Part shown: piece after piece, positions 22,781 through 64,000 of the stretch | Position numbering within the stretch: position 1 is the first letter of the stretch | Layout: every line of letters starts with the position of its first letter | Assembly (NCBI GenBank): GCA_963792895.1 | Contig: CAWBYA010000008.1 | Coordinates: 373,495-437,494 of the forward strand | Direction of reading: 5' to 3' | Origin: an uncultured Acidimicrobiia bacterium | Lineage (GTDB): Bacteria > Actinomycetota > Acidimicrobiia > Spongiisociales > UBA5794 | Length of the DNA stretch: 64,000 nucleotides | Translations under genes and position numbers: made by a program | The notes under the pieces: generated by a model | Told to the model about the DNA's origin: nothing | Databases searched by the model: none | Seen by the model: the letters and a program-made list of their open reading frames with translations, nothing else

Positions 22781-22795
22781 ACCCCGAAGACCGGT

Positions 22796-24275: not shown

Positions 24276-24295
24276 CGCACAGGGTTCTCGATGAT

Positions 24296-24326: not shown

Positions 24327-24360
24327 CAACGGACTCGCCGAAGGCGAGTACGGTAGGACG

Positions 24361-28734: not shown

Positions 28735-28857
28735 GCACCGCCTCCGATCACTCAATCTGCTGAAGGCCCACCGAGTGTGCACCCTCGAGTAGGTCGAGAG
28801 TCAAGAGGCTTTGGGCTCAGTCGCCCCGATCCTCGCTCGCCGGAGGCGTGAAGGCGT

Positions 28858-38045: not shown

Positions 38046-38866
38046 GCACCCGGCTGGTTGAAGCAACCGCCGGCTTCCTCGGTCGAAGGACCAGCAGGCG
38101 CGGCTTCCTGCGTCGCGCGGCCATCGTCGGCTCGGCGCTCGCTGCCGCCCCCGCAGCGTATGTCCTCCGTCCGACCACCGCGTATTCGGCGATCGTCAAG
38201 ACCTGCAGCGACTGCCCGTCCGGATCGCGATGTTGCGGCGGATACACCGAGTTCTGCTGCGCCATGTCCGGGGTCAACACGTGCCCTCCGGGCAGTGTCA
38301 TCGCAGGCTGGTGGCGGGCCGAGGGCTCCGGCTACTGCGATGGCGGGTCCCGCTACTACATGGACTGCAACACCGCAGACTGCGGGGGCTGCGGCTGTGG
38401 GTATTCGGGCACGTGCTCGGACTCATGCGTCGACTGCAGCTGTGGATGCGCCAACAACGACTGCAACCTGAGGCAGGCGTGTTGTGTCCGGTTCCGGTAC
38501 GGCCAATGCAACCAGCACATCGAGTGCGTCGGCCCGATCATCTGCCGGGTCGTCACCTGCGTGCCGCCGTGGGAGTGGGATTCGTCGTGCTCGAAGGCCG
38601 ACGCCCGCGACGACAACACCCGATTCCACGATGCGGCATGTCTCCGGCCGTCGCTCGTGCGCCAGGCGTACCCCGGCGTCGTGTCGGGCGCCACCTTCGA
38701 GCTGCGCGAGTCACTCAGCACAGGCATCCCTACGGAGAAGTACGACTACGGGCTGCCGGGCGACATCCCAATCATGGCGGACTGGTCCGGCTCGGGCCTG
38801 GAGACGGCCGGACTGGTGCGGGGGCGCGCCATGGGGCCCTGGACGCTGGTGCGCTCACGTGGCTGA
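38042..38866 (+). CDS. Tat-exported cysteine-rich protein with C-terminal FG-GAP repeat (possibly 5-prime part of a longer frameshifted gene)
   Basis: GTG start overlapping mauE-like stop; twin-arginine signal SRRGFLRRAAIVGSALAAAPAAYV; 26 Cys in about 150 residues; C-terminal YDYGLPGDIPIMADWSGSG repeat. Confidence 0.5.
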   Translation: MSTRLVEATAGFLGRRTSRRGFLRRAAIVGSALAAAPAAYVLRPTTAYSAIVKTCSDCPSGSRCCGGYTEFCCAMSGVNTCPPGSVIAGWWRAEGSGYCDGGSRYYMDCNTADCGGCGCGYSGTCSDSCVDCSCGCANNDCNLRQACCVRFRYGQCNQHIECVGPIICRVVTCVPPWEWDSSCSKADARDDNTRFHDAACLRPSLVRQAYPGVVSGATFELRESLSTGIPTEKYDYGLPGDIPIMADWSGSGLETAGLVRGRAMGPWTLVRSRG

Positions 38867-38874: not shown

Positions 38875-39363
38875 GTGCCCGGGCCAGGCGACCCCGACCT
38901 CGTCGTGGAGTACGGAACCGCAGGCGACGTGCCCGTCGCCGGTGATTGGAATGGCGACGGCGTCGACACGATCGGGGTCGTCCGGGGCAACCGCTGGCTG
39001 CTGAGCAACCACAACGCCGGGGGCACGGCAGACATCGATATCGTGTTCGGCGAGCCCGGCGACATCCCTGTGGCGGGCGACTGGAACGGCGACGGTGTCG
39101 ATACGCCGGGCGTAGTCCGGGGAACACGGTGGATACTGCTCAACGGCTTCGACCCAGCGGGCCCTCGGGTCGAATTCGACTTTGGGCCTGCCGACGGCGT
39201 CCCCATCGTCGGCGACTGGACCGGGGCAGGGCGCCATCTGCCGGGGCGCTTCGTCGCCGGGTCTTGGCAGCTTCGGCTGTCGCTGTCGGACGGACCGGCG
39301 AACAGCACCTTTTCGTTCGGCGACCCGAACGGGGTGCCGGTGGTGTGGGGCCGGGTGCCATGA
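38875..39363 (+). CDS. FG-GAP repeat protein (likely continuation of preceding gene across a 1-nt frameshift)
   Basis: three tandem units GD-x-PVAGDWNGDGVDT-x-GVVRG-x-RW; no signal peptide of its own; first in-frame GTG at 38875. Confidence 0.45.
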   Translation: MPGPGDPDLVVEYGTAGDVPVAGDWNGDGVDTIGVVRGNRWLLSNHNAGGTADIDIVFGEPGDIPVAGDWNGDGVDTPGVVRGTRWILLNGFDPAGPRVEFDFGPADGVPIVGDWTGAGRHLPGRFVAGSWQLRLSLSDGPANSTFSFGDPNGVPVVWGRVP

Positions 39364-42366: not shown

Positions 42367-43338
42367 ATGGAAGCCCTTCACCCCGCAGGGAACGGATCCT
42401 CGACCGGGGACGAGGGCTCCGCCACGATGATCGACTGGCTGATGGAAGGGGATCCGGCCATCCGCTGGCAGACGATGCGTGACCTCGCCGACGCCGCACC
42501 GGCCGAGGTCGCTGCCGAGCGGGCACGGGTTGCGACGGACGGCTGGGGTGCGAGGCTTCTCGAGCTTCAGGACGACGAGGGAACCTGGGCCGGTGCGCTC
42601 TACAGCCCAAAGTGGACATCCACGACGTACACGCTGCTTCTCCTGCACCGGCTCGGCCTACCTCGCGGCCACCCCCAGGCCCTGGCAGGCTGCAGGGTGC
42701 TCTGGGATCGGGCCAAGTGGTTCGACGGCGGCCTCACGCTCGCCAAGACGATCAGGGAGCCGGAGACCTGCATCACCGGAATGCTGCTGCAGCTGGCGGC
42801 TACGTTCGGCCACGACGACACTCGTCTCGACGAGGCCGCTGCATGGCTCATCGGCCAGCAGCTTGCCGACGGAGGCTGGAACTGCGAGTCGATTCGCAGC
42901 GGCTCGCGCCACGGGTCGTTTCACACGTCGATCACGGTGCTCGAAGCACTGGACGCCTATCGGGGGGCCGACGGCGGGATTGCGGTTGCCAGGGCGATGG
43001 AGCGAGGCCGCCAGTTCTTCCTCGACCACCGGCTCTACTGCTCGCATCGAACGGGCGAGGTCGTCGACACGACCTTCACCCGCTTCCCGTTCCCACCGCA
43101 GTGGCACTTCGACGTCGTCCGCGGACTCGAGCACTTCCTGACGCAAGGCGTCGCACCCGACGAGCGGCTCGCCGGCGCCGTCGATGCCGTGTCACGAGCC
43201 CGTCGCCGCGACGGCAGGTGGCCCGTCTACCGGGCCTACCCGGGACGTCGATGGTTCCTGCTCGAACAGAATGGGCCCGGGCGCTGGTCGACGCTCCGTG
43301 CGCTCCGGGTGCTGCGCTGGTGGGGCGGCGCCGGCTGA
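42367..43338 (+). CDS. prenyltransferase/squalene-cyclase-like alpha/alpha-toroid repeat protein
   Basis: 323 aa; about six 45-50-aa repeats carrying Q/D-x2-DGGW motifs (LQDDEGTW, WFDGG, QQLADGGW, RRDGRW). Confidence 0.5.
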   Translation: MEALHPAGNGSSTGDEGSATMIDWLMEGDPAIRWQTMRDLADAAPAEVAAERARVATDGWGARLLELQDDEGTWAGALYSPKWTSTTYTLLLLHRLGLPRGHPQALAGCRVLWDRAKWFDGGLTLAKTIREPETCITGMLLQLAATFGHDDTRLDEAAAWLIGQQLADGGWNCESIRSGSRHGSFHTSITVLEALDAYRGADGGIAVARAMERGRQFFLDHRLYCSHRTGEVVDTTFTRFPFPPQWHFDVVRGLEHFLTQGVAPDERLAGAVDAVSRARRRDGRWPVYRAYPGRRWFLLEQNGPGRWSTLRALRVLRWWGGAG

Positions 43339-43370
43339 GCCACCGGACGCTGCCCCGCTACGCTCGCCCG

Positions 43371-43820
43371 ATGCGTCGCGTTGTTGCAGCCGGATTCGGG
43401 GTGGGTTGGATCCCTCGCCGGCTGTGGGGCAGCGACAATGGTGCAGGCACGTTTGGGGCGGCCGTAGGAGGCATCATCGGCATCGCCTCCTGGCTTGGCG
43501 CATGGTGGGTGGGCCTCATCATCGCCGTAGCCGCAATTGCCCTCTCGGTATGGGCATCCGGCCCGGAAGGCCGTGGCGGGGCAGATCCGGGTTGGGTGGT
43601 GATCGACGAGGTTGCAGGAGCCTTGGTCGCCGTCATCGGGCTCTCCGGTGTGGCGTGGGCCGTCGCCTGGATCGTGGCCAGGTTGGCCGACATCTTCAAG
43701 GTGCTCCCCGGCGTCGGGCAGGCAGAAGGTCTCCCTCCGCCGTGGGGCATCACTGCAGACGACGTTGTCGCCGGGCTGTACGGCTTGGCCGCCGGCTGGC
43801 TCGTCACCTGGCTCCTGTGA
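43371..43820 (+). CDS. pgpA: phosphatidylglycerophosphatase A
   Basis: 149 aa; DPGWVVIDEVAG signature, hydrophobic C-terminal half. Confidence 0.7.
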   Translation: MRRVVAAGFGVGWIPRRLWGSDNGAGTFGAAVGGIIGIASWLGAWWVGLIIAVAAIALSVWASGPEGRGGADPGWVVIDEVAGALVAVIGLSGVAWAVAWIVARLADIFKVLPGVGQAEGLPPPWGITADDVVAGLYGLAAGWLVTWLL

Positions 43821-43828
43821 GCCCGACG

Positions 43829-45409
43829 TCACTGCAGCCTGATGTAGCGCGCAGCGAGCACGCCCTCGAGCGCACGGAGCCGCTCCACGAGCTCGTCGTC
43901 CATGGACTGGTCGATGCTGATCCCCATCATCGCACCGTGGTCCGGCCCACGGCCGACCGCCATGTCGGCGATGTTGATGCCGGCGTCGCCGAGCAGCGTG
44001 CCGACCCGCCCAATGACACCGGGGGTGTCGGAGTTGCGAACCAACGCCATGTGATCGGCGATGGGGAATTCGATCTCGTAGCCGTCGACCTCGACGAGCA
44101 CTGCGCCGCGGTGGGCCATCACCGACCCGCAGATGGAGCGAGCTTTCCCTGCGACCGTGCCGCCGAGACGAACGACCGATCGGTAGTCGGCAGCCTCGGG
44201 CACGGCTTCCTCGCGCCAGGACATCCCGTGGCGGGCCGCCAGGACGGGGGCGTTGACGAACGAGACCGGGGTTTCGCTTGCGGATGCCAGCGTGCCCTTG
44301 ACGGCACTCAAGGCGATCGCCCGCACCGCATCGGCGATGTCCCGACCCCGTGCCGACACCGTCAGCTCGCTGGGGAGCCCGAAAGAGAATCCCGCGAATA
44401 TCCGCCCGAGCCGCTCGGCGAGGTCGACGTACGGTCTCGCTTCGACAGACACGCGCGGACCGAGATCGAGGTTCACGGCCGAAGGCACGAGCTCACCTGC
44501 GAGCGCCGCTACGACGGCCTCCGCAACCGAAGTGCCGGCCTTGTCCTGCGCCTCTTGGGTCGAGGCTCCGAGGTGCGGAGTCACGACGACGTTTGCGAGG
44601 CCGAAGAGCGGGCTCGTGGTGGTGGGCTCGGTTGCGAACACGTCGACGGCGGCGCCTCCCACCTGCCCGCTGGCGACGGCGGCGGCGAGGGCTTCTTCGT
44701 CGACGAGGCCCCCTCTGGCGACGTTGACGATACGAACACCCGGCTTGGCGCGGGCGAGAGCTGCAGCATCGATGAGACTCTCGGTGTCAGGGGTGCGGGG
44801 GAGATGAATGGTCACGAAATCCGACTCGGCAAGCACGTCGTCGAGTGGTGCCAACCGCACGCCGAGGCGCCCAGCGCGCTCGTCGCTCACGAACGGGTCG
44901 TAGGCGATGAGATGCATGCCGAACGCCGAAGCACGCTGCGCCACCAGAGTCCCGATGCGGCCGAGGCCGAGGATCCCGAGTGTCTTGCCGTGCAACTCGA
45001 CTCCTTGGAACCGCGATCGTTCCCATGCGCCGCCACGAAGGGAGGCGTCGGCCTCAGCCACTCGGCGGGCTTGAGCGAGCAGCAACGCCATCGTGTGCTC
45101 CGCTGCCGAGATCGTATTTGCGTCAGGGGCGTTCACAACCAAGACGCCTGCGGCTGTCGCAGCATCGAGATCGATGTTGTCGACACCGATACCGGCCCGA
45201 CCTACCACCCGCAGGAGCGGAGCGGCGGCGATGAGCTCAGCATCGACCTTTGTCGCCGAACGGACGATGAGGCCGTGTGCGGATGCGAGCCGATCGCCCA
45301 ATTCGGGTCGCGACAGACCGGCAGCGACGACGACATCGACCGAGGCGCGCAACAGGTCGAGTGCAGCCTCGGCGATGGTCTCGGCGATGACAACGGTGGG
45401 TCGGTCCAT
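43829..45409 (-). CDS. serA: D-3-phosphoglycerate dehydrogenase
   Basis: 526 aa; NAD Rossmann GLGRIG, catalytic R/H/E region, C-terminal ASB + ACT domains. Confidence 0.9.
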   Translation of the reverse strand: MDRPTVVIAETIAEAALDLLRASVDVVVAAGLSRPELGDRLASAHGLIVRSATKVDAELIAAAPLLRVVGRAGIGVDNIDLDAATAAGVLVVNAPDANTISAAEHTMALLLAQARRVAEADASLRGGAWERSRFQGVELHGKTLGILGLGRIGTLVAQRASAFGMHLIAYDPFVSDERAGRLGVRLAPLDDVLAESDFVTIHLPRTPDTESLIDAAALARAKPGVRIVNVARGGLVDEEALAAAVASGQVGGAAVDVFATEPTTTSPLFGLANVVVTPHLGASTQEAQDKAGTSVAEAVVAALAGELVPSAVNLDLGPRVSVEARPYVDLAERLGRIFAGFSFGLPSELTVSARGRDIADAVRAIALSAVKGTLASASETPVSFVNAPVLAARHGMSWREEAVPEAADYRSVVRLGGTVAGKARSICGSVMAHRGAVLVEVDGYEIEFPIADHMALVRNSDTPGVIGRVGTLLGDAGINIADMAVGRGPDHGAMMGISIDQSMDDELVERLRALEGVLAARYIRLQ

Positions 45410-45469
45410 GGCTTCCTCCGGCGTGAGGAGTCATGTTGGCACCGGCCGCTACCGAGGCCGAATCGGTGG

Positions 45470-45880
45470 GTGCCGGCGCGAGTACCCTGGCGGCTCGTGG
45501 AGCCATTCCCTCAGCCGACACTGGTTCGCGCGCTCCTCAGGGGAGCCGTTGGCCGCTGTCCACGCTGCGGTTCCGGCCACATCTTCCGCTATTGGGTCAC
45601 GATGGTCGACGACTGCCCGCGGTGCGGGATGCACTTCGAGCGGAGCCAGGGTTACTGGTTGGGCTCGATGCTCATCAACAGCGCGGTCACGATGGGAACG
45701 TGGCTGATCGTGTTCGTCGGCATGATGGTCGCCACCTGGCCCGACGTGCCGTGGACGACCGTGTTGATCATTGTCGTTGCGGTGACGGCGCTCGTCCCCG
45801 TGCTGTTTCACCCCCTAGCCCGGACGCTGTGGGTAGCGCTCGAACGGCACGTTCGCGCCCGCAGCGAGCCGTACGCCTGA
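45470..45880 (+). CDS. DUF983-family zinc-ribbon membrane protein
   Basis: CPRCGSGHIF...CPRCGMHFE followed by two TM helices; GTG start at 45470 (or 45497). Confidence 0.5.
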   Translation: MPARVPWRLVEPFPQPTLVRALLRGAVGRCPRCGSGHIFRYWVTMVDDCPRCGMHFERSQGYWLGSMLINSAVTMGTWLIVFVGMMVATWPDVPWTTVLIIVVAVTALVPVLFHPLARTLWVALERHVRARSEPYA

Positions 45881-45924
45881 CGGCACCAGCACGCAAAACG
45901 CCCTCGATGTAGGTTGCCGGGGCC

Positions 45925-47049
45925 ATGGTCGTGGACACGCCCCCTACCCGCCGCCACGAAATCGATGCTCTGCGCGTGACAGCGACGCTGCTCCTGATCT
46001 TGTTTCACACCGGGATGGTGTTCACCGCGTTCGATGCGTTCCACATCCAGAACGCCGAACGAAGCGAACTGATCGGCGAAGTCAACAACTTCATCCACCA
46101 GTGGCATATGCCGCTGTTCTTCCTTCTCGCCGGCATGTCGGCTTGGTATGCCTTCCGGTCCCGCCTCGCGCACGAGTTCCGGTTGGAGCGGCTCAGGCGG
46201 CTTCTCGTACCGCTCGTATCCGGGATGCTCCTGATCATCCCGCCCCAGGTCTACGTGGAGCGCATTGCGACGTGGGTAGGCACTCGAAGGAGCCCAATCG
46301 ACTTCTCCGGCACCTTCTTCGAGTGGTATCCCAACACCTTCCAGTGCTGTTATCCCGATGCGAACCTCTCGTGGCACCACCTGTGGTTCCTCATGTACCT
46401 GTTCCTCTACTCCGTGCTGTTCGCCGGCGTCTTCGCTTGGCTCCGCAACGGAGGCGCTCCCTTTCGGATTCGCGTCACCGCAGTGCTCGCTCGAGGATGG
46501 AACCTGGTCCTGATCCCAGCGGCGTACCTCGGAATCGCCGAGGCCGTGTTGCGGCCATCGTTCCCCAACAACCAGGACCTCGTCACCGATCTCGCCAACC
46601 ATGCCAACTATCCGGTCGTGTTCCTGCTCGGCTTTCTCGTCGTGAGCGATCCGCGACTCGACGACGCCATCAATCGGCTGTGGGTGTGGTCGTTGCCACT
46701 GGGAATCGCAGTGATCGTTCTCCCGGACGTGTCCCGACAGTTCGACGCCGCAACACGTGGTGTTGCCGAGTGGCTGGTGATCGTCGGCCTGGTTGGGCTG
46801 GGTCGCAGGTACGTCACCCGGCCTACCGATTGGATCACTCGGTTCTCCGCCATCTCACTCCCCTTCTACATCTGGCATCAGACCGTGATCATCGTTCTTG
46901 CGTACTTCGTCATCCAGTGGGAGGTCGCAATACTGCCCAAGTACGCAACGATCGCGACGCTGGCGTTTCTCATCACCTGGGCACTCTCCGAGGCCGTCGC
47001 ACGCACCAACCCCACTCGGGCGCTGTTCGGCCTTCGACCTCGCGTGTAG
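45925..47049 (+). CDS. acyltransferase-3 family membrane protein
   Basis: 374 aa, about 10 TM helices, N-terminal EIDALRVTATLLLILFHTG motif. Confidence 0.7.
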   Translation: MVVDTPPTRRHEIDALRVTATLLLILFHTGMVFTAFDAFHIQNAERSELIGEVNNFIHQWHMPLFFLLAGMSAWYAFRSRLAHEFRLERLRRLLVPLVSGMLLIIPPQVYVERIATWVGTRRSPIDFSGTFFEWYPNTFQCCYPDANLSWHHLWFLMYLFLYSVLFAGVFAWLRNGGAPFRIRVTAVLARGWNLVLIPAAYLGIAEAVLRPSFPNNQDLVTDLANHANYPVVFLLGFLVVSDPRLDDAINRLWVWSLPLGIAVIVLPDVSRQFDAATRGVAEWLVIVGLVGLGRRYVTRPTDWITRFSAISLPFYIWHQTVIIVLAYFVIQWEVAILPKYATIATLAFLITWALSEAVARTNPTRALFGLRPRV

Positions 47050-47110
47050 CCGCCCGGCGTCGCCTCCGGCACCCGTCGATCGATCCCAGAGCGGCGGCTA
47101 CGCTCGCCCG

Positions 47111-49871
47111 ATGCCAGACGAAGAGCGCATCGAGCGCGACACCCGGCTCAGAGCGGACATCCGCCTCCTCGGCAACCTCTTGGGTGAGACCCTCGTTCGC
47201 CAGGAGGGCGCCGGCCTGCTCGAGCTCGTCGAAGACGTGCGAGCGCTCACGAAACGCATCCGGGGTGGGACAGACGACGACCGAGACGCCGCCGATGAAC
47301 TGACCCAGCTCCTCGCGCAACTCGATCTCGAGACGACGATCCAACTCGTCCGCGCCTTCTCGGCGTTCTTCTATCTCGCCAACGTGGCCGAGCAAACCCA
47401 CCGCCTCGATGAGGAGGGGGCCCGTTCGGGCCAGCGCGGCTGGCTCGCAGCGACCGTCGACCGTGTTCTTGCTGCCGACATGCCGGCGGAGATCCTGAGC
47501 GCCGTCGCCACCAGGCTGGAGTTGCGCCCCGTGTTCACGGCACACCCCACCGAGGCCGCCCGCCGCTCGATCCTCACCAAGACGGACCGGGTGGCAGATC
47601 TCCTCGAGCTCCGCGCCGACCCACGCCTCACAGACAGCGACCGCGACCGGATCGACCGGCGCCTCGCCGAGGTCGTCGATCTGATTTGGCAGACCGACGA
47701 GCTGCGTCGGGAGCGCCCCACCCCGATCGACGAGGCTCGCTCGGTGATGTATTACTTCGACGAGATCTTCCGCGAGGTCGCTGCCGAGCTGTTCGACGAG
47801 CTCGATCATCAGCTCGGCCGGCTCGGTATCGAGCTTCCGTCGACCAGCCGACCGCTCCACTTCGGCACCTGGGTCGGGGGCGACCGTGATGGCAACCCGA
47901 ACGTGACACCCGACGTGACGATGCGGGTGCTCCAGATGCAGCACGATCATGCGCTGCGCGAGCTCATCGCCGCCGTCGAGCAGCTGGCAACCGACCTCAG
48001 CTCGTCCGACCGGATCACACCCATCACCGACGAGCTGGAGATGTCGCTGGCGGGGGACGCCCGCGACCTGCCGTCGACCTACGAGGTCTTCTCCGACCTC
48101 TCCGCCGGCGAGGCCTACCGGCAGAAGTGCGCGTACGTCCACCAGCGCCTCATCAACACGCGACAGCGGCTCGCAGACGAGACCCCGCATCATCCGGGTC
48201 GGGACTACGGATCCGCCGACGCGCTGCTCGACGACCTGGCCGTGATGCGGCGGTCGCTCCTTGCTCATCACGGCGAGCTCATCGCACGTGGCTCGCTGGA
48301 TCGTCTCATCCGCCGTGTCGCCACGTTCGGGTTCCGGCTCGCCACGATGGATGTGAGGGAGCACGCGACAGCCCATCACGCTGCGATCAGCCAGCTCTAC
48401 GCCAGGCTCGACGTCGCCTACCCCGCCGACCCGGCCGAACGCACGGCGGTGCTGGCAGCGGAGCTGGAGAGCCGTCGTCCGCTGGCATCGCTCACGACTC
48501 GCCTCGACGACGGTCCGGCTCGTACCGTCGAGACCTTCCACACCGATCCGCAAAGCCCTCGACCACTTCGGCCCAGACACCATCGAGAGCTACATCGTGT
48601 CCGAGACCCGCGGCCCCGAGGACATCCTCTCCCCCGCCGTCCTCGCCAGGGATGCGGGCCTGATCGACCTCCACACCGGTGTGGCGCGCATCGGCTTCGT
48701 TCCACTCTTCGAGACGATCGACGAAGTGCGTGACGCCGGCGACCTCCTCGACGAGATGCTGACATGTGCGCCCTACCGAGAGATCGTGCGGCTGCGCGGC
48801 GACCTCCAGGAGGTGATGCTCGGCTACTCCGACTCCAACAAGCATGCCGGCATCACGACGTCGCAATGGGAGCTGTACAAGGCGTCTCGGGCGCTCCGCG
48901 ACGTCGCCAGCGGCCACGGCGTCGAGCTGCGCATCTTCCACGGCAGGGGCGGCACGGTTGGGCGGGGTGGCGGCCCGACCGGCGAGGCCATCCTGGCTCA
49001 GCCGTGGGGCACCGTCGACGGCCGGATCAAGATCACCGAGCAGGGCGAGGTCATCGCCGACAAGTACGGCCTCCCCCGCCTCGCCGCCTCCAACCTCGAG
49101 TTGACACTCGCCGCCACTCTGGAGGCGTCGTTGCTGCACCGTACCTCACGCCAGATCGAGCGATGTGCTGGCGAGGTGGGACGAGAGCATGGACGTGGTC
49201 AGCGATGCCGCCTTCGCCGCCTACCGAGGACTCGTCGACCTGCCCGACCTCGTGCCGTACTTCGTGACCTCGACGCCGGTCGAGGAGCTGGCGGCGATGA
49301 ACATCGGCTCGCGCCCGGCCCGCCGGCCGGGTGGCGGTGCCGACAACGTAGGCCTCGGCGGGATGCGGGCGATTCCGTGGGTATTCGGGTGGACCCAGTC
49401 GCGCCAGATCGTTCCCGGCTGGTTCGGTGTCGGCACCGGCCTGCCGCGCCGCTCGGTCCGCCGGTCTCGACGGCGCCATCGCCCACATGTACGAGCAGTG
49501 GTCGTTCTTCCGCACCTTCATCTCGAATGTGGAGATGACGCTGACCAAGACCGACCTCACGGTGGCAGAGCGATACGTCGAGACGCTCGTCGCCCCCGAG
49601 CACCGCCACGTGTTCGACGTGATCCGTGAGGAGCACGACGCGCACGGTGGCCGAGGTGCTGGCGGTGACGGGCCAGGACGACCTGCTCGACCGCTACCCG
49701 GTGCTGCAGCGCACGCTGCGCATCCGCGACGTCTACATCGACCCGATCTCGTACCTGCAGGCAGCGCTCCTGCAACGATCGCGCTCGGCTGCCGAGGGTG
49801 ACGATTCATTGTCGCGGGCGTTGCTGCTCACCGTCAACGGCTTGGCGGCAGGTCTGCGCAACACCGGGTGA
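47111..49871 (+). pseudogene. ppc: phosphoenolpyruvate carboxylase disrupted by about four frameshifts
   Basis: PEPC hallmarks in order but spread over five frames: a (47111-48550, ...RTVETF), b (48550-49160, [12 protein letters not shown]...[15 protein letters not shown]...[11 protein letters not shown]), e (49165-49450, [10 protein letters not shown]...GWFGVGTGL), c (49450-49640, [31 protein letters not shown]), d (49640-49871, [10 protein letters not shown]...[16 protein letters not shown]). Confidence 0.7.
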
Positions 49872-50029
49872 GGTCCGACCTCTGTGCGCGATGCGGTTCG
49901 ACCCATGAACCAACTGCGCCCGGCCGGCGGTCGGGCGGCGTCGCCATCCCCTGCCCAACCATCGGGCCGGGCCTTGTGTCACGTCAGCGGTCGCCGCAGA
50001 CCCATCCCCTCGTTCGTAGGCTCGGGTTG

Positions 50030-50389
50030 GTGACCACGCTCGATCACGTCCGGTCCGTTGCGCTGACGCTGCCGGGGGCGTTCGAGCAGCCTTCGTATGG
50101 AGGCCGGCCATCGTGGCGGACGAAGTCGCGGATGTTCGCCTGGTTCCGAGACGACCCCGAGGCGCTCGTCGTCTGGGTCGAGACGCCCGAGGAGAAGCTC
50201 GGTCTCATCGCCGGCGAGCCGGAGAAGTTCTTCACGACCGACCACTACGACGGTCTCCCCGTCGTGCTGGTACAGCTCGATGCCATCGATGACGCCGAAG
50301 CCGGCGAGCTGATCGTCGAGTCCTGGCGCCTACGAGCGCCGAAGGGGCTCGTGAGTTCCTGGGACGAACCCAACGCTGCGAGTCGTTGA
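50030..50389 (+). CDS. MmcQ/YjbR-family putative DNA-binding protein
   Basis: 120 aa from GTG 50030; LTLPGAFEQPSYGGRPSWRTKSRMFAWF pattern. Confidence 0.45.
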   Translation: MTTLDHVRSVALTLPGAFEQPSYGGRPSWRTKSRMFAWFRDDPEALVVWVETPEEKLGLIAGEPEKFFTTDHYDGLPVVLVQLDAIDDAEAGELIVESWRLRAPKGLVSSWDEPNAASR

Positions 50390-50886: not shown

Positions 50887-51598
50887 ATGACCGCTCGACC
50901 CCATGTGGGCACGTTGCGCGAGAAGCCGCTGCATGCGGCGCTGAAGCGCTGGTATGCCGAGCAGGGAGATCGCATCGAGGAGCCGGTCGACGGGTTTCGT
51001 CATCGACCTCGTCCGCGAAGAGATGCTCATCGAGATCCAGACGCGCGGCTTCTCCTCGATGAAGCCCAAGCTGCACAACCTGCTGCAACGGCATTCCGTG
51101 CATCTCGTGTACCCGATCCCGCTCGAGAAGTGGATCGTGAAGATCGACGACAGCGGGGCGGTCATGTCCCGGCGGAGATCGCCCAAGCGAGGTGCAGTGG
51201 TAGACGTCTTCGCCGAGCTGGTGAGCTTCCCTGAGCTCCTCGCCCATCCGAACTTCACGCTGGAGGTGCTGCTCATCCAAGAGGAAGAGGTGCGCAGGTT
51301 CGACCCAAGCAAGGCATGGCGCCGCAAGGGCTGGGTGGTCGTCGAGCGCCGGCTGCTCGACGTCGTCGATCTCCTCGTGGTCGAATCACCGCACGCCCTC
51401 GTCTCGCTGCTGCCGACCGAAGTGCCTCGGGAGTTCACGACTGCCGACCTCGCGGCGGAGCTCAGCTGCCACCGCCGCTTGGCGCAACAGATGACCTACT
51501 GCCTGCGCCGCACGGGCGTCATCGAGATGGTCGGCAAGGAGGGGAACGCCATCATGTATGCCCGCATCGATGACGCCGACTGGCCGGAAACGACGTAG
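50887..51598 (+). CDS. hypothetical protein (nuclease-fold-like N-terminus plus winged-helix-like C-terminus), interrupted by a single-T insertion
   Basis: frame 1 MTARPHVGTLREKPLHAALKRWYAEQGDRIEEPVDGF continues in frame 2 VIDLVREEMLIEIQTRGF...; joining requires removing one T from run ttt at about 50994; C-terminal MTYCLRRTGVIEMVGKEGNAIMY resembles wHTH. Confidence 0.45.
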
Positions 51599-52107: not shown

Positions 52108-54920
52108 TCACTCCAGCTCGGCGTAGTAGTTCGTCAGCACCTCCTCAGGTGTGAGCACTCGGTCGTAGACGGCCGCCCCGAAGAACGTTCCGAGCCAGTG
52201 CGCGCCGCCGCCGCCGTCGGCGAGCGAGAGAATGACGTCACCGGCTGCGGGTGTGCCCCACGATCCCGTGAAGCGCTCTTGCGCAAGCATCGATCCATCG
52301 ACGTAGAGGCGCAGCTGCGCATTCTCGATGTCGACGCTGCATGCCACATGGAGCCGCCCGGGTTCGTCTGCGATCACCGACCTCACGGCTTCCATTGCCC
52401 GTCGACGGCGCATCGTCAGCTCGACCGCCCCGACGAGACCGATCTCGTCGAAGGCGAGCGTCAGGTGAGGACCGAGCGAGTCGGCCACGGTCACCGTCCT
52501 GGCCGAGGTGCGCCGGAACACCATTCCCGGGCTCGGAGTGACCATTGCCTCGAGTGTGCCACCGCCGTTGGCCACCATCGCCTCGAGGATCCACGCGCGC
52601 AGAACCCTCAGCCGACAGGGTGCTCGGGCCCACGAGCTCGAGACCGCCACCGGACCACGCAACGGCGCTCGGGTCCGTGATCTCCAGGTCGAGTGCCGAC
52701 GCTCCCGGCGCCCGGTCGTGAACGACCGAACCAGCACCCTCATCGAAGGCGTAGTGGGCAACCAGTCCATGGGAGACGTGCGGCGGCCGGAGTGCGTGCA
52801 CGACGACGCTATCGAAAGACTCGGCGGCACCGTCGTCGGCGACGATCGTGAGCGTGTAGTCGCCGGGTCTCGTGAACCGGGCACGAGTGAGATCGGACGA
52901 GGCGTCATCGAAGCTGGTATTCCCCGGGCCGTCTTCCTGACGCCACCGAAGCGTGACGCGACCCGGCGAATGTGGGAGCCCGTCGTCGCCGACCGTTGCG
53001 TCGAGCACGGCCGGATTCGGCAAGACAACCGACCGTTCCGGCCCCGCATCGACGGTCGGCCGCTGGTTGACGGTGAACGTGACCATCTCCGCCGAGCTGA
53101 GGTAGCCGTTCCCGACGGTGAGTTCGAAGACGTAGTCGCCGTTCCGCTCGACCGTTGCCGTCGCCGTCAACCCGTTCGGCGAATCGATGACCGGCTCCGA
53201 TGGGCCGGACACATACCGCCAGGTCGTGGTCACCGGAGCTCCCGGGTCTCCGAGCGCCGGGTCGATGATCGTTCCCGCCAGCGATATCGCTGCGCTACCG
53301 CTGGAGTCGAGCGTGACGATCTGCGGCGCGTCCGTCGTGATCTGCGGAGTGCCGAACGCTGCGACGTACACGTCCGCGCTCGCCACGAAGGCTGTCGAGA
53401 GCTCCACCCCGGTAGACGTCGGCATCTTCCGTGCGGTCGCGCAGCCGGCCGTTGACGTACGTGCGCAAGGTCGACCCATCGAACGAGATAGCAAGGTGGT
53501 TCCAGCTATCCAGGGTCAGGACTCGCGACGAGCGGTGCTCGACCCAGGTTCCGTCAGCGCCGAAGCCGATCCGAAGCGCGTTCATGTCCTCGATCCACAC
53601 GGACGGCGGCGAGTTGTTGGTGCGGCGCGCTCCGGCGATGGTCTTGCCGGCGCCGATCAACCGCTGCGGCTTGACGGCGTGCTCGCCCTCGGGCCGCCTC
53701 GGGAAGATCCAGGCCTCGATCGAGAATGCGCCTTCCAACGACACGCCGCCGTCGAGAGCGATCTTCGTCTGCCCCGAGAACTCCAGCGCAGTCTCGGCGT
53801 GCCCGGTCGACTCGACGAAGGGGATCAGGTCTTCTCCGGTGAACGGGTCCTTCCCTGGCCGCGCCTCGAACACGTCGCCGCGGTGCGCGGGGTCTGGGCT
53901 CGTGTAGAACTGCGTGCCGCGTGGGTTGAAGAGGCCATCCGCGGCGCGCTCGAGGCTGTAGGAATCGATGCGGCCGGTGCGTGCGTTGTGGGTGAGGATC
54001 TGCCAGCGCTGCATCCCAGCAACCTGGGTCGGAACCAACAGCACGGTGAATCGGCCATCGCGGAGCTGATTGACGAACGACAGCTCGAGCGTCGGCTCGA
54101 TGAAGGGGTTGCCGTCCAGATCGCGGTCACCGAGACCATCCCGGCGGCTTTGCGGCCGGCTCTTGCTCCGGCTCCGCTGGAAGCGGACCTCCCGCACACT
54201 GGTCAACTCGTTGCCGGAAAGCAGGAAGCGATCCACGAGCAGCGTCGAATCGACCAGCGGCACGGCCACGCCCGCGGCGTCTGTCACGAGATCACCGTCC
54301 GGCGTCGTCTTGGCCAAGGCGCTCGGTGAGTCGGCTGCGATGGCCTGGCGGAAGACGTAGATGTGCTGCCCATCCGACATTGCCTCGAAGGGCTGCACCG
54401 CGGTGAACCGTGCGGTCGTCGACAGGAACTCGTCGCGATCAGGGGCCGCCAGTCTCACCCCGGCGGGCTCAGCGACGGTCGAGCCCCTCTTGTAGGTAGG
54501 AACGGTGGTCTGGTCGACGATGCCGTAGCCGACCTGTGCGATCTCAGTGGGGAAGCTCAACAGCAGCGGCGTCGGGCTCCAACCATCCACGTCGCGCGAC
54601 GGGGCGGCGGACCCATTCGTCGACGCCTGAGCAGCGGCGGCCGCGGCATCCAGCACGGAGTAGTAGATGCTCGGTCGGCCGTTTGGCTCCACAGCAAGAG
54701 CAAACGATACGACGCGCCCTTGGTGGCGCACCATGGTCGTGAACCGGAAGTCGCGCTGCGAGTAGCGCTTGACGAATGAGTCGAGCATACGTTCAGAACC
54801 CCCAGGTCCGGGCGTCAGGCCTTCTGGATTGTGTGCCTGGTCCCGTCTCCCCCGAGATCCCGAACGCGCCAGCGCCTCCGACTCTATAGAAGCGGGAAGG
54901 CGCATGACGGCTCGAGACAC
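52108..54920 (-). CDS. large (about 930 aa) LamG(ConA-like)/PKD-domain protein, reading frame broken twice
   Basis: three consecutive minus-strand ORFs (54920-53295, 53494-52238, 53049-52108) carry in order: unknown N-terminal domain, LamG-like (WNHLAISFDGSTLRTYVNGRL), PKD/Ig-like (TATATVERNGDYVFELTVGNG), second LamG-like (LVAHYAFDEGAGSVVHD...LRLYVDGSMLAQ...AVYDRVLTPEEV); no signal peptide. Confidence 0.5.
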
Positions 54921-54974
54921 AAGACGATGGCCGTGCGGTCGCAGCCGGTCGCCGCACCAGCCGAAGCGGTCACC

Positions 54975-56999
54975 TCAGCGGACGGTGTCGAGGCGTACCA
55001 GGAGGTCACCCATGCCGACCCGATCGCCGACGGCGAACCGGACCTCGACAACAGTCGCGAAGCCGGTGGCTGCGATCCTGTGCTCCATCTTCATCGCCTC
55101 GATCACCATCAAGACGTCACCGTCCTCGACCTGCTGACCGGCGGACACATTCACGGCGATGACGGTGCCGGGTAGAGGGCTGACGGGGCCACTGCCTGCC
55201 TCGGACGCGTCGTGGTCGGAGAATCGCCGCATGAGCGTCCATGTCGCACTGCCCACCGCACCTATCGCCGTGATGCCACGCTCCGGCGTTCCGACCAGCA
55301 TGATCGAGCGCCGGACGCCGTCGACCTCGATACCGAGCTGCTCCCCGGCATGAGACAGCACCCGTACCCGCAGCCGGCGCCGCTCGTCGGGACCGAGGGC
55401 GCCGTCGTCGCCCGGTTGCGGCCACGGACCGACGACCACGGCTGCCTCCCGATCGCTCACCCACAGCTCCTCGATGTGGTTGGCAGCGCCACTCCGGTCG
55501 AGCCACACCGACCGCTGCCCCATCGTCCGCAGATTGCGCCATCCGGGCCGGACGAATCCCCAGAGCCCGTCCGCCGCCCGGTTCGCCAGCGCCCTGTGCA
55601 CCACGCACGCCACGAGCAGAGCGAGAAGGTCGTCGCCCTCCGCACCCGTGGCCGCGGTCACCTGCGGATGCTCCTCCAGATACGAGGTCGGCGTCGCCGC
55701 CGCCAGGAAGTCCGCTTCGTCGAGCAGGGCAACGAGCGTGTTGCGGTTCGTCGCCGGCCCCGCGAGATGAGCTGTGCGCAACGCGCGAGCAAGAGAGCGG
55801 GCCGCCTCTCCCCGCGTTGGGGCGTGGGCAATCACCTTTGCGAGCAGCGAGTCGTAGTCGGTCGACACCACCGAACCCAGCCGGACACCTGCATCCACCC
55901 GCACGTCATCGGCGACCGAGAACGCCGTGATCTCACCGGTGGCCGGGATCCAGCCTGCCGCCGGGTCCTCAGCAACGAGCCGGGCCTCGACGGCGTGGCC
56001 GGCGATCACCACGTCGTCCTGGGCCAGCGGCAACGGCTCCCCCGCCGCAACCCGCAACTGGAGCTCGACGAGATCCAGCCCCGTCACCGCCTCTGTGACG
56101 GGATGCTCGACCTGGAGGCGGGTGTTGACCTCGAGGAAGCTGATGGTGCCTTCGCCGGCCACCAGGAACTCGACGGTGCCGGCGTTCTGGTAGCCAACCG
56201 CCCTACCGAGGGCGAGCGCACCCTCGCACACGGCCGCTCTCATGGCTGCGGTGATCCCGGCGGACGGTGCCTCTTCGACGATCTTCTGGTTGCGGCGCTG
56301 GATCGAGCACTCCCGCTCGCCGAGGTGGATCACGTTGCCGTGGGCGTCGCCCATGATCTGGACCTCGATGTGACGCGTCTGCTCGATATAGGGCTCGACG
56401 AAGACGGTCCCGTCTCCGAACGCACTCGCCGCTTCTCTGGCCGCCGCTTCCACCGCCGCGACCAGCTCGGTCGGGTTGCGCACGATCCGCATCCCCCGCC
56501 CACCGCCACCGGCGGCGGCCTTCACGATGGCGGGCATCGGTACGTTGTCGGGGATCGCCTCAGGTGCTGCTGCGAACACCTGCGCCGTCGGGACCCCGGC
56601 GTCGACGGCGACCTGCTTCGCCGCCACCTTGTCGCCGAGCAGGGCAATCTGGTCCGGCGTCGGGCCCACCCACGCCAGCCCCGCGTCGATCACTCGCCGT
56701 GCAAACTCGGCGTTCTCGGCGAGGAATCCATAGCCGGGGTGGACGGCGTCGCAACCCTGCGACAGCGCAGCCTCGAGCACGGCATCGATATGGAGATACG
56801 ATTCAACAGGCGTTGCTCCGCCCAGCGCAACGGCGACATCGACGACATCGACGTGGAGCGCGTTCGCGTCGGGCTCGGAGTACACGCCCACCGTCTCGAT
56901 GCCCATGCGGTGGGCGGTGCGGGCGATTCGGCAGACGATCTCGCCACGGTTGGCGATGAGGAGCCGGCGGATCGGGCGCACCTCCATCAGTGCCTCCAC
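54975..56999 (-). CDS. accA: acyl-CoA carboxylase alpha subunit (biotin carboxylase + biotin carboxyl carrier domains)
   Basis: 674 aa; ATP-grasp biotin carboxylase N-terminus, C-terminal EAMKME biotinylation motif. Confidence 0.9.
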   Translation of the reverse strand: MEALMEVRPIRRLLIANRGEIVCRIARTAHRMGIETVGVYSEPDANALHVDVVDVAVALGGATPVESYLHIDAVLEAALSQGCDAVHPGYGFLAENAEFARRVIDAGLAWVGPTPDQIALLGDKVAAKQVAVDAGVPTAQVFAAAPEAIPDNVPMPAIVKAAAGGGGRGMRIVRNPTELVAAVEAAAREAASAFGDGTVFVEPYIEQTRHIEVQIMGDAHGNVIHLGERECSIQRRNQKIVEEAPSAGITAAMRAAVCEGALALGRAVGYQNAGTVEFLVAGEGTISFLEVNTRLQVEHPVTEAVTGLDLVELQLRVAAGEPLPLAQDDVVIAGHAVEARLVAEDPAAGWIPATGEITAFSVADDVRVDAGVRLGSVVSTDYDSLLAKVIAHAPTRGEAARSLARALRTAHLAGPATNRNTLVALLDEADFLAAATPTSYLEEHPQVTAATGAEGDDLLALLVACVVHRALANRAADGLWGFVRPGWRNLRTMGQRSVWLDRSGAANHIEELWVSDREAAVVVGPWPQPGDDGALGPDERRRLRVRVLSHAGEQLGIEVDGVRRSIMLVGTPERGITAIGAVGSATWTLMRRFSDHDASEAGSGPVSPLPGTVIAVNVSAGQQVEDGDVLMVIEAMKMEHRIAATGFATVVEVRFAVGDRVGMGDLLVRLDTVR

Positions 57000-58594
57000 A
57001 CCCCGTAGCTCGTGGCGCCGGCGACCTCGTTCGAGTGGACCGCCGAGAGCGCCATCCCCAGCACGACCCGGGTGTCACGGGGATCGATGATCCCGTCGTC
57101 CCACACGCGGCCGGTGGCGTACAGCGCCGTCGACTCCCGCTCCACCTGAGTCTCCAGCATCGAGGTCTGGGCGGCGAGCGCCTCCTCCTCGATCTCGAGC
57201 CCGCGCTTGGCGGCGGAGTTGCGGGCGATGATCTCCATGACCCCGGCGAGCTGCTTCGGCCCCATAACGGCGATGCGGTGGTTGGGCCAGGTGAAGATGA
57301 AGCGGGGGTTGTAGGCCCTGCCCGCCATCCCGTAGTTGCCCGCCCCGTAGCTGGCCCCCACCATCATCACCAGGTGGGGTACCTCGGAGTTGGAGACGGC
57401 GTTGATGAGCTTGGCGCCGTTGCGGATGATGCCTCCCTGCTCCGCCTTGGATCCGACCATGAACCCGGTGATGTTCTGGAAGAACACGAGCGGGGTGTCG
57501 GTGCGGTTGCACAGCTGGATGAACTGGGCGCCCTTCTTGGCCTCCTCGGAGAACAAGATGCCGTTGTTGCCGAGCACCCCGACGGGGTAGCCGCAGATCG
57601 AACCCCAGCCGCACACGAGCTGGCCGCCGTACAGCGGCTTGAACTCCTCCATGCGGCTGCCGTCGAGCACCCTGGCGAAGATCTCCCTGATCTCGAAGGG
57701 GATGCGGACGTCCGCCGAGGCGCACCCCATCAGCTCCTCAGGGTCGTGGAGCGGATCGTCGGCAGGCTCGGTGGGACCGGGACCGAGCTTTCGCCAGCGC
57801 AGGTGGCGGACGATGCCACGCCCGATGCGGAGCGCATCCATCTCGTCGATCGCCAGGTAGTCGGACAGCCCGCTGATCCGGGAATGCATCTCCGCCCCGC
57901 CGAGGGTCTCCTCGTCGACGACCTCGTCGATCGCCATCTTCACCAGTGGTGGGCCGCCGAGATAGGCGGTGGCCCGCTCCTTCACGAACACCGAGTAATC
58001 GCTCATCCCCGGCACGTAGGCGCCACCCGCCGTTGCCGGGCCAAAGCCGAGCGTGATCGAGGGGATCCCCGCCTTCGACATCTGGGTGAGGTAGCGGAAC
58101 TGGGCGCCGCCGGGCACGAAGATGTCGGCCTGGCGGGGCAGCTCGGCGCCGGCGGCCTCGTTGAGGATGATGGTCGGCAGCCGGTTCTGGAGCACGATCT
58201 CATACAGCCGCATCATCTTGGTGAGCGTGGTGGGGTTGGCGGAGCCGCCCCGGTACGTCATGTCCGAGCCGGTGATGGCCACCTCGGTTCCCTCGACGAT
58301 CCCTATGCCGGCGACGATGCCCGCCCCGATCGGGTCCTGGGTGCCCCAGGCGGCAAGGGGACTCAGCTCGAGGAAGGGGGTGTGCGGGTCGACCAGGGCC
58401 TCGATCCGCTCCCGCACCAGCATCTTGCCTCGCTTGCGATGGCGGTCGACGTACCGCTGGCCACCCACGGCAGGGACCTTGGCGAGAAGGGTTGCGACCT
58501 CGTCCCACAGTTCCCGCATAGCCGCTCGGTTGGTGGCGTACTCCGCGGAGCGGGTGTCGAGCCGGCTGCGCAGCGGCGTGCCGATCGGGCTCAC
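56987..58594 (-). CDS. accD: acyl-CoA carboxylase carboxyltransferase beta subunit (methylcrotonyl/propionyl-CoA type)
   Basis: 535 aa carboxyltransferase N and C halves; 13-nt overlap with downstream accA (accD-accA order as in mycobacterial accD1-accA1). Confidence 0.85.
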   Translation of the reverse strand: MSPIGTPLRSRLDTRSAEYATNRAAMRELWDEVATLLAKVPAVGGQRYVDRHRKRGKMLVRERIEALVDPHTPFLELSPLAAWGTQDPIGAGIVAGIGIVEGTEVAITGSDMTYRGGSANPTTLTKMMRLYEIVLQNRLPTIILNEAAGAELPRQADIFVPGGAQFRYLTQMSKAGIPSITLGFGPATAGGAYVPGMSDYSVFVKERATAYLGGPPLVKMAIDEVVDEETLGGAEMHSRISGLSDYLAIDEMDALRIGRGIVRHLRWRKLGPGPTEPADDPLHDPEELMGCASADVRIPFEIREIFARVLDGSRMEEFKPLYGGQLVCGWGSICGYPVGVLGNNGILFSEEAKKGAQFIQLCNRTDTPLVFFQNITGFMVGSKAEQGGIIRNGAKLINAVSNSEVPHLVMMVGASYGAGNYGMAGRAYNPRFIFTWPNHRIAVMGPKQLAGVMEIIARNSAAKRGLEIEEEALAAQTSMLETQVERESTALYATGRVWDDGIIDPRDTRVVLGMALSAVHSNEVAGATSYGVWRH

Positions 58595-58727
58595 CGCCTG
58601 CTCCTGTCCATCCCATCGGCTACGTGCTGCATCGGCTCGCAGGCTACCGCGCCGGTCGGGCGGCCCGATCCCGAGCGGGCGGTGCGGGGATCGCTCGTTT
58701 CAACCGCCGCCTACCGTTGCCACTCCG

Positions 58728-59459
58728 ATGAGTGATCACGACTTCTCCCGGCTCGCCGAGCTCCACACGCTCGGCGACGACCCGATCCCCGAGGTCGTGA
58801 GCGGAATCGCAGCCGGCCGGGCAGCCGAGCTGGTCTGGCGCAACGAACTCGGTGGGCTCACGTTTCGCATCGGCGACAGCATCGTGAAGTGGAATCCACG
58901 TCGGACAGGCATCGACCTCGAGCGAGAACGCCTGCGGCTCGACTGGATTGCGGGTCGATTCCCGGCTCCACTCGTCAGGTCTTTCGGCTCGAACGACCAT
59001 GGGCAGTGGATCGTGACCGATGCACTGCCGGGCGACTGCGCCGTCGGCGACACCTGGCGGGCCCGCCGGCAGGAGGCAATCGAGGCGATCGCCACCGGGC
59101 TGCGTGCCATCCACGCCGTCGCAATCGACGACTTCCCGGTTGATTGGATCGGCGAGGTCTGGCACGCCAGGACGCCTGCAACGCTCGGGCAACGGCCGCC
59201 ACTCGACGAGCCGGTCCTCGTGCACGGCGACGCATGTGCGCCCAACACGCTGATCACGCCGGAAGGCGAGTGGTCCGGCATTGTCGATCTCGGCGATCTC
59301 GGCGTGGGCGACCGCTGGGCCGATCTGGCCATTGCATCGCTCAGCCTCGATTGGAACTTCGGCGATGGTCATCAGGGAGAGTTCTTCGATGCGTACGGGA
59401 TTCAGCCAGATGAGGTGCGAATCCGCTACTACCGAGAGCTGTGGCACCTCGAGTCGTGA
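58728..59459 (+). CDS. aminoglycoside/choline-kinase-like phosphotransferase (APH family)
   Basis: 243 aa; Brenner motif VLVHGDACAPNTLI and DLGDLGVGDRWADLA. Confidence 0.7.
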   Translation: MSDHDFSRLAELHTLGDDPIPEVVSGIAAGRAAELVWRNELGGLTFRIGDSIVKWNPRRTGIDLERERLRLDWIAGRFPAPLVRSFGSNDHGQWIVTDALPGDCAVGDTWRARRQEAIEAIATGLRAIHAVAIDDFPVDWIGEVWHARTPATLGQRPPLDEPVLVHGDACAPNTLITPEGEWSGIVDLGDLGVGDRWADLAIASLSLDWNFGDGHQGEFFDAYGIQPDEVRIRYYRELWHLES

Positions 59460-59750
59460 CGCTGTCGCCACTCGCCAGCCGTTGGCGGTCACGCCTCCGC
59501 AAGCTGCGGGACGACGGACTTGCCGAGACGCTCCACCGTTGCAGCCGATCCCGGACCGAGCCGAATCAGTTGGGCTTCCTGGATGCCGGCGTCGTCGAGC
59601 CGCACGGATCTCTCCGACCAAGGCAGCGTCACCACGAGCCGAGCTCATGGTTTCAGTCGTGCTGGTCCTTCTGGGACTGCCGCTGCTGTTGGCCGCATGA
59701 CCAACGGCTGGCACCATGTCGACGAGGGAATGACCTCCGGATGGCGCCGG

Positions 59751-60383
59751 TCAGCGCAGCCCGAGCCAGTGGAGGATGAGGTCGGCGTCGAGGAGCGAGA
59801 TGGCGGTGTGCCGGGTCGACACCGAGCCGTCCCGAGAAAGCAGCACGGTACGCATCCCGGCGGCCACGGCGGCGTCTGCGCCGATCTCGGTGTCGTCGAT
59901 GGCGAGACAGCTCGCCGGTGGCACCGCTATCCCCTCTGCGGCGGCGAGGAACAGGTCCGGCGCCGGCTTGCCACGGGTGACGTCGTGGCCCGAGACCACC
60001 GCATCGAAATAGCGGGTCAAATCGAACTTGGCCAGCTTCAGGTCGAGCATCTCGCGGCCGCTCGACGAGGCCACCGCCAGCGGCACGCCCTCGGCCGCCA
60101 GCGCCCGCACCGTATCGACCGCATCAGGGAACGCTTCGAGCTCCGTCATGAACACATCCCGGCGCACGACGTCGACCTCGGCCACCAGGTCGTGACTCGG
60201 ATCGACGTCGACGAAGCGTCTGAAGTAGATCGCGGCGTCCTCGCTGGTGGTGCCGCGGGTGGCCAGGAAGTCGCCGTCGGTGGCTGCGTAGCCGTAGCGA
60301 TCGAGGATGATCGCCCAGGACCGTTCGGAGATCGGCTCGCTGTCGACGAGGACGCCATCGCAGTCGAACACGACGCCCCGCAT
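59751..60383 (-). CDS. HAD-family hydrolase (beta-phosphoglucomutase-like subfamily IA)
   Basis: MRGVVFDCDGVLVDSE motif I, S/T motif II, K and DD motifs. Confidence 0.75.
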   Translation of the reverse strand: MRGVVFDCDGVLVDSEPISERSWAIILDRYGYAATDGDFLATRGTTSEDAAIYFRRFVDVDPSHDLVAEVDVVRRDVFMTELEAFPDAVDTVRALAAEGVPLAVASSSGREMLDLKLAKFDLTRYFDAVVSGHDVTRGKPAPDLFLAAAEGIAVPPASCLAIDDTEIGADAAVAAGMRTVLLSRDGSVSTRHTAISLLDADLILHWLGLR

Positions 60384-60389
60384 GCCGGA

Positions 60390-63316: not shown

Positions 63317-63317
63317 G

Positions 63318-63608
63318 TCACGCCTCGTCGAGGATGCGCGGCACCCGGAAGTAGCCGTCGACTGCGTCCGGGGCCTGGGCGAGCACCTCGTCTGGATCGA
63401 GCGAGGGCGCCAGCTCGTCGGGTCGGAACGAGTTGGTCATCGGCATCGGATGGGAGGTTGGGGGCACACCTTCAGTGGGAAGGGCTTGCACGCTCTCGGC
63501 GTAGGCGAGGATCGAGTCGAGCTGGGCGCCGTACTCGGCGAGTTGCTCCTCGCTGAGCGCGATGCGGGCGAGCTTGGCCACCTTGGCGATGTCGACGTGG
63601 ACGGGCAT
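63318..63608 (-). CDS. gatC: Glu-tRNA(Gln) amidotransferase subunit C
   Basis: 96 aa; [32 protein letters not shown] typical GatC. Confidence 0.85.
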
Positions 63609-63653
63609 AGACCGGCGAGGTTAGTGCGGGTCCTGACCGGTCGGGCGACCGCC

Positions 63654-63965: not shown

Positions 63966-64000
63966 CGTGCCTGCATCTTCGTCGCCCGCCGCCGCCGGCG

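Follow-up and report, generated by a model that had tools for sequence, protein, structure and literature searches.

The gene for phosphoenolpyruvate carboxylase (PEPC), ppc, is spread over five reading frames in the stretch of DNA analyzed here, 64,000 nucleotides from an uncultured Acidimicrobiia bacterium (hereafter the window). The four +1 breaks responsible are most probably single-base insertion errors of a long-read metagenome consensus and not the signs of a dead gene, a reading to which we give a probability of about 0.9 from the comparison of sequences. Taken at face value, the window would describe an actinobacterium without PEP carboxylase, in need of another anaplerotic route, and errors would pass into metabolic reconstructions or pseudogene counts that draw on long-read MAGs of this sort.

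The split ppc gene and its repaired product

The ppc coding region occupies positions 47111-49871 on the forward strand, 2761 nt as the window stands. It starts with the ATG at 47111, and its last piece ends with the TGA at 49869-49871. The list of open reading frames contains five PEPC-like pieces on this strand (46898..48733, 48597..49538, 49165..49629, 49427..49801, and 49626..49871), which lie in frames 2, 0, 1, 2, and 0 when expressed as coordinate modulo 3. For tblastn we used P0005, an Actinomycetota MAG protein that is the closest homolog with a complete C-terminus. This query matched the window in five query-contiguous HSPs at 68-79% identity, covering residues 1-397, 398-600, 602-693, 695-758, and 759-834 in frames 1, 2, 3, 1, and 2, respectively, with exactly one surplus nucleotide at each of the four junctions; besides these junctions, in-frame stops or further gaps were not found in the same search. 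The five-frame split, which the preliminary description of this DNA had reported as about four frame changes of +1, all in the same direction, is confirmed as real and far surpasses what chance would give. A GC3 and codon-usage frame scan of the whole window was too noisy for frameshift calls and was used for the gene map only. The N-terminal fragment of the split gene is found in a public protein collection as an exact gene call of 540 aa, whereas exact matches to the proteins of several other window genes were not found there, probably owing to differences of one residue or of the start codon.

With the four surplus bases removed, ppc measures 2757 nt, that is, 918 codons and a stop. The repaired 918-aa protein matches PF00311 (PEPcase) over profile positions 1-919 of 919 with a score of 1034.6 bits, the curated cut-off being 22.4 bits, and its residues 10-918 align with residues 5-883 of the 883 residues of E. 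coli PEPC (1FIY). All four hallmarks of the family, namely TAHPTE with the catalytic His, GYSDSxK, the FHGRGGxxGRGG loop, and the C-terminal (Q/R)NTG (here RNTG), are found in the repaired translation and align with the matching segments of 1FIY; their catalytic roles are presumably those known from the E. coli enzyme. The earlier observation that the hallmark segments are all present and in the right order therefore holds for the translation, the profile match, and the structural homolog alike. Among the matches listed, the nearest other PEPCs come from Acidimicrobiia/Actinomycetota MAGs, at 55-68% identity, and the G+C content of the window is 60-70%. By these features, the window ppc would be an ordinary, functional-looking bacterial PEPC gene of an Acidimicrobiia-like actinobacterium.

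Sibling assemblies of the same population

The ppc region is also covered by two assemblies from the population of the window, nearly identical to it at 99.3-99.7%. In ENA ERZ25039603:contig_22394 (448 kb), an acyltransferase identical to that of the window, where it lies just upstream of ppc (45925-47049) and matches residue for residue, is followed by an intact PEPcase gene of 918 aa. An uninterrupted ORF of about 880-970 codons is therefore present in contig_22394 and absent from the window, where the same gene runs through five frames. Across window positions 42925-50053, the two sequences are 99.62% identical, with 23 mismatches and exactly four one-base gaps, every one of which is a base surplus in the window. 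The other assembly, ENA ERZ25039499:contig_2853 (436 kb), is without the surplus bases of the window at sites 1, 2, and 4 (numbered from the start of the gene), and its ppc is called as two genes of 838 aa and 86 aa because it has a surplus G of its own near site 3. In two Logan contigs from run ERR12037370, ppc has an open frame for residues 1-573 and for its final 274 residues, respectively, which together cover all four sites. Among these same-lineage data, contig_22394 is without any of the four lesions, contig_2853 is without those at sites 1, 2, and 4, and the Logan contigs are open across all four.

The preliminary description had weighed a genuine pseudogene against poor read support. 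It asked for resequencing, in which an uninterrupted ORF of about 920 aa would point to assembly indels, and for a comparison with relatives. The comparison across assemblies stands in for that resequencing. In effect, the 918-aa ppc of the 99.6%-identical contig_22394 is such an ORF, differing from the window copy by exactly four bases plus mostly synonymous SNPs, and the comparison favors assembly indels.

Alignment with the siblings located each surplus base, all on the forward strand. Site 1 is an A at 48546, where the window reads CACCGATCCGC and both siblings read CACCG-TCCGC; GTC becomes GATC, and the frame shifts after residue 478. A surplus G at 49154 makes site 2 (window CGCCAGATCGAG, both siblings CGCCA-ATCGAG) and turns CAATC into CAGATC. 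At site 3, either the G at 49443 or the C at 49444 is surplus, with CCTGCCGCGCC in the window against CCTC-CGCGCC in contig_22394, so that CTCCGC reads CTGCCGC. Site 4 is a surplus A at 49638, GCACGACGCGCAC against GCACG-CGCGCAC in both siblings, by which CACGCGC becomes CACGACGC. These positions correct those first proposed for the breaks (near 48548, 49163, 49450, and 49640). The surplus base at the first of them is an A and not the g that had been suggested, and the restored peptide reads TFHT-VRKALDHF, which differs from the one first given. Near site 3, the surplus G of contig_2853 lies one position away from that of the window and in a different local sequence (CCTCGCGCGCC). As this base was acquired independently, site 3 appears to be a recurrent error site, and an adjacent surplus base of this kind is what a systematic miscall would be expected to produce.

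All four ppc lesions are insertions, a one-sided pattern. Homopolymers are the classical context of Nanopore errors, and a homopolymer of at least three bases is present at none of the four sites. Homopolymer slippage was accordingly rejected as a common cause, the only indel within a run being the one at 38819 described below. A GATC (Dam) motif was also considered, as the insertions at sites 1 and 2 were seen by eye to create GATC (from GTC and AATC). It was rejected in turn: sites 3 and 4 and other private insertions fall outside GATC, so no single motif explains the insertions. A looser signature, CG to CGA, is visible at 48546, 49638, and 50806 in the window, at 46956 in contig_2853, and at 33542 in contig_22394.

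Three-way alignments covered window positions 24360-52424 and pairwise alignments 54896-64000, about 37 kb in total. The window has about 8 private single-base indels, among them those that break ppc (4), a DUF8091 gene (50998), and the gene of a 366-aa hypothetical protein (38819). Two are private to contig_2853 and break its acyltransferase (46956) and its ppc (49444). About 36 are private to contig_22394, where genes for a peptidase S9, an E1 dehydrogenase, gatC, gatA, gatB, a carboxyltransferase, and a biotin carboxylase are broken; the peptidase S9 gene alone has 13 indels within 1.9 kb (33.0-34.9 kb). The genes broken in contig_22394 are all whole in both the window and contig_2853, and for each broken gene there is another assembly with a whole copy. 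Between the window and contig_2853, zero gaps were found across 54896-64000.

The window-private indels outside ppc comprise a surplus A at 50806 (GACGAGGG against GACG-GGG), between called genes, and a surplus C at 50998 on the forward strand, which leaves the DUF8091 gene of the window without its N-terminus, as a 214-aa ORF; the two siblings and a Logan contig have this gene at 236 aa. A further surplus C at 52414 lies 10 nt from the edge of a 2.47-kb segment found only in the window (52425-54895) and may be an alignment-edge effect. The remaining one is a one-base deletion in a G run at 38819 on the forward strand (G5 against G6 in both siblings), which splits the 366-aa hypothetical gene that is whole in both siblings. 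Seven of the eight are insertions, and seven of the eight fall within 48.5-52.4 kb; a homopolymer context applies to one of the eight only (38819, G5/G6). The damage had been described as local to ppc, which is true insofar as serA, both acyl-CoA carboxylase genes, and gatCAB are intact, but the private indels at 50806, 50998, 52414, and 38819 extend it beyond the gene.

Insertion clusters over 1-2 kb, such as the one in the window ppc, recur at other loci of a sibling assembly that is otherwise clean there. As would be expected of an artefact, the indels are private to one assembly, differ from assembly to assembly, and hit indispensable genes too. Indeed, gatCAB is expected to be indispensable, and such gene breaks can therefore not all be biology. 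The assembly-private pattern has the appearance of consensus error behavior and not of gene decay. As three assemblies of one population break different genes, frameshifted genes in these contigs should be taken as consensus errors until reads say otherwise.

Purifying selection on ppc and rival explanations

With the intact sibling copy of ppc as frame reference, 16 of the 19 substitutions in the window copy are synonymous, and the other three are conservative (M/L, E/D, and N/D). Downstream of the first frameshift, 10 out of 10 substitutions are synonymous in the repaired frame. Random single-base changes in ppc would be synonymous in 26% of cases and would create a stop in 2.5%, so the chance of 10 synonymous changes out of 10 at random is about 1e-6. 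Since all the downstream substitutions are synonymous, neutral decay is absent in ppc, and purifying selection is shown to span all five frame pieces. Relaxed selection after the first lesion was likewise not found when judged by these substitutions, by the count of stops (zero), and by the full-length profile match. Had a lineage drifted for the time that four indels take to accumulate, tens of substitutions free of constraint would be expected, and none was seen.

This weighs on the possibility of a very recent, genuine, strain-specific ppc pseudogene, in which the four insertions would be real and another anaplerotic route would be used. The window ppc does represent a haplotype of its own, in which 18 SNPs private to the window are clustered; the four insertions lie outside homopolymers; and the region adjoins the strain-variable 2.47-kb segment, which shows that this strain and its siblings are indeed not the same. 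However, such a pseudogene would have gathered four indels without neutral decay, its 10 downstream changes all synonymous, its stops zero, and its motifs intact, and, by coincidence, another assembly would have been struck independently at site 3 as well. Similar private insertions are also found in the window outside ppc, between genes and in a neighboring gene, and far more private indels are found in indispensable genes of a sibling assembly. The mutation spectra of bacteria are deletion-biased for indels, whereas the four lesions here are insertions. As for the alternative route, a pyruvate carboxylase was not found in the window, and the carboxylase encoded nearby is an acyl-CoA carboxylase of two genes, one for a Carboxyl_trans protein and one for a biotin carboxylase/BCCP fusion. 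The suggestion of a genuine pseudogene with anaplerosis supplied in another way is thus contradicted by the intact sibling ppc, the synonymous substitutions, and the assembly-private indels, and we consider it unlikely. We find it quite improbable, too, that the case holds something new, either a real, very recent burst of four +1 insertions that inactivated ppc in an otherwise conserved haplotype, for example through insertion-prone lesion or repair at CG-containing sites, or recurrent CG-to-CGA and site 3 miscalls that reflect a motif at which the DNA of this Acidimicrobiia lineage is modified and the basecaller misled.

Two other scenarios keep ppc functional or turn the comparison around, and both seem to us extremely remote. 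Programmed ribosomal frameshifting or transcriptional slippage could compensate for the four +1 shifts, and this would agree with their common direction and with the purifying selection on the downstream frames. Nevertheless, the 99.6%-identical genomes are without the surplus bases and have the whole protein in a single frame, a full-length HSP without a change of frame was obtained at 75 of the 80 relatives' loci listed, and a slippery motif, homopolymer, or conserved context common to the four sites was not found. Such recoding is excluded in practice by the single-frame ppc of near-identical genomes and by the lack of a common motif. It could also be argued that the window is correct and that contig_22394 and the Logan contigs carry four deletions, contig_22394 being the most error-laden of the three assemblies with its roughly 36 private indels. 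Yet at sites 1, 2, and 4 contig_22394 is matched by contig_2853, which has the fewest errors of the three, and four random deletions would not yield a perfect reading frame. The version without the four bases is a full-length ORF colinear with every homolog and with the Pfam profile, and the reverse scenario is excluded on this basis.

Possible origin of the probable errors and comparison with known systems

For the preferred reading, insertion errors that persisted in a long-read consensus, a plausible origin can be outlined. The platform was probably Nanopore with Flye, as the sibling contigs have Flye-style names. The roughly 4 kb at 48.5-52.4 kb would be a stretch of locally poor consensus, the likely cause being low effective coverage or strain mixing. 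Most simply, the contig would here represent a strain haplotype that is mixed or in the minority and to which few reads effectively contribute, so that polishing would leave insertion errors behind. Of the 26 SNPs private to the window in the 10.8-kb three-way block, 18 fall inside ppc, and the 2.47-kb segment found only in the window adjoins the indel-rich stretch. The indel clusters of the other assemblies also lie in mismatch-rich blocks, as seen in a 58-kb block and in the 82 private mismatches and 158 pairwise mismatches of contig_22394.

Of the 80 ppc loci of relatives among the matches listed, 75 have one HSP that is full-length and keeps to one frame. Clear frame breaks, with HSPs in several frames, were seen at L011 and L017, which are two of six loci from Microflora Danica (MFD) MAGs, and at L076, from a Streptomyces draft, and the alignments of L003, also from MFD, and L074 end short of the C-terminus. 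Clear frame breaks were found in none of the short-read MAGs among the 80 loci listed. Several relatives of the window belong to the MFD Nanopore MAG set, whose MAGs were polished with one Medaka round only (PMC12313526). The same group reported that frameshifting indels persist in Nanopore-only assemblies and that, at a coverage of less than about 40-fold, polishing with short reads is still required to rid a bin of them (Sereika et al. 2022, PMC9262707).

Compared with known systems, the window ppc shares with bacterial Ppc (EC 4.1.1.31; PF00311; E. coli 1FIY/1QB4/1JQN) the full profile, the end-to-end alignment, and the hallmark motifs, the four interrupting surplus bases being the sole difference. 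With the genuine frameshift pseudogenes of Mycobacterium leprae and of host-restricted lineages, it has in common multiple frame breaks in a recognizable gene. However, genuine decaying pseudogenes show relaxed constraint, stops, and deletions, whereas the window ppc has a synonymous to nonsynonymous ratio of 16:3, with no nonsynonymous change downstream of the first frameshift, and its lesions are not reproduced in 99.6%-identical genomes. The errors of Nanopore-only assemblies, seen as truncated genes by IDEEL (Sereika et al. 2022, PMC9262707), share with it single-base indels that are assembly-private, clustered, gene-fragmenting, and missing from independent assemblies. The four ppc insertions differ from textbook Nanopore errors in that they are outside homopolymers and several read CG to CGA. 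The broken ppc is most aptly classed with a familiar type of assembly artefact, the frameshifting indels of long-read-only MAGs, in a somewhat atypical context and with no new biology.

A probable shared error site in ppc and the context of the insertions

At the third site of surplus bases in the phosphoenolpyruvate carboxylase (PEPC) gene, ppc (47111-49871, plus strand), the window and the sibling contig_2853 (L084), two independent assemblies, each carry one surplus base, at most 1 nucleotide apart, at 49443-49444. The two assemblies read CCTGCCGCGCC and CCTCGCGCGCC here, versus CCTCCGCGCC without the surplus base. Because contig_2853 contains only two private indels, that is, indels seen in one assembly only, over ~37 kb, a chance coincidence at this site is unlikely (roughly 1e-3). 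The coincidence suggests that this spot is systematically miscalled, perhaps because of a modified base.

Insertions that turn CG into CGA recur in three assemblies: at 48546, 49638, and 50806 in the window itself, at window position 46956 in contig_2853, and at window position 33542 in the other sibling, contig_22394. Many insertions in contig_22394 likewise make or lengthen CG dinucleotides. In this high-GC lineage, the pattern may stem from the basecaller or the polisher.

The surplus A at 50806 falls between called genes, and the surplus C at 50998 leaves the DUF8091 gene without its N-terminus in the window, where the ORF has 214 aa (50954-51598); the two siblings and a Logan contig encode 236 aa. 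Only one window-private indel lies in a classical homopolymer context: at 38819, a run of five G, versus six in both sibling assemblies, breaks a 366-aa hypothetical gene into ORFs at ~38561-38866 and 38875-39363.

Structural differences between strains

The window-private 15-bp insertion at 28753-28767 (CAATCTGCTGAAGGC), located between a MerR/GyrI-like gene and a glutamyl/glutaminyl-tRNA synthetase gene, is likely real strain variation and not an error. In the region ~22700-24360, contig_22394 (L088, 17236-18884) contains ~1.6 kb of sequence with no counterpart in the window. This stretch contains a 321-aa ORF and adjoins a phage-integrase gene, and both siblings align raggedly to the window at 24237-24359. 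The region resembles a strain-dependent hot spot for mobile elements or integration.

A 2.47-kb segment of the window (52425-54895) is missing in both sibling assemblies, where a 101-aa Laminin_G_3 remnant is found ~70 nt after the biotin carboxylase gene. Three different minus-strand frames of the window, between 54974 and 52108, together encode Laminin_G_3 (profile positions 3-109), two or three PKD domains, and a C-terminal part of Laminin_G_3 (profile positions 69-150). Two readings fit: a large gene for a surface protein, carrying more frameshift errors, or a locus that is decaying and varies among strains. The cluster of window-private single-base insertions at 48.5-52.4 kb borders it.

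Broken genes in the sibling and in other assemblies

The fault pattern of contig_22394 (L085/L088) mirrors the problem of the window. Its dense clusters of insertions and mismatches, at window-equivalent 33.0-34.9 kb and 54.9-64.0 kb, break gatC, gatA, gatB, both acyl-CoA carboxylase genes, and a peptidase S9 gene; its ppc is whole. Aligned with the window over 9.1 kb, it has 18 gaps and an identity of 98.07%.

Several PEPC calls on other long Acidimicrobiia MAG contigs also end in out-of-frame tails (protein calls P0003, P0008, P0009, and P0021; Microflora Danica loci L011 and L017). P0009 and P0021 have a common tail, ...SSCRHSSPTSR, and P0008 loses and regains the reading frame along its length. 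Assemblies of this kind therefore often contain frameshifted ppc calls.
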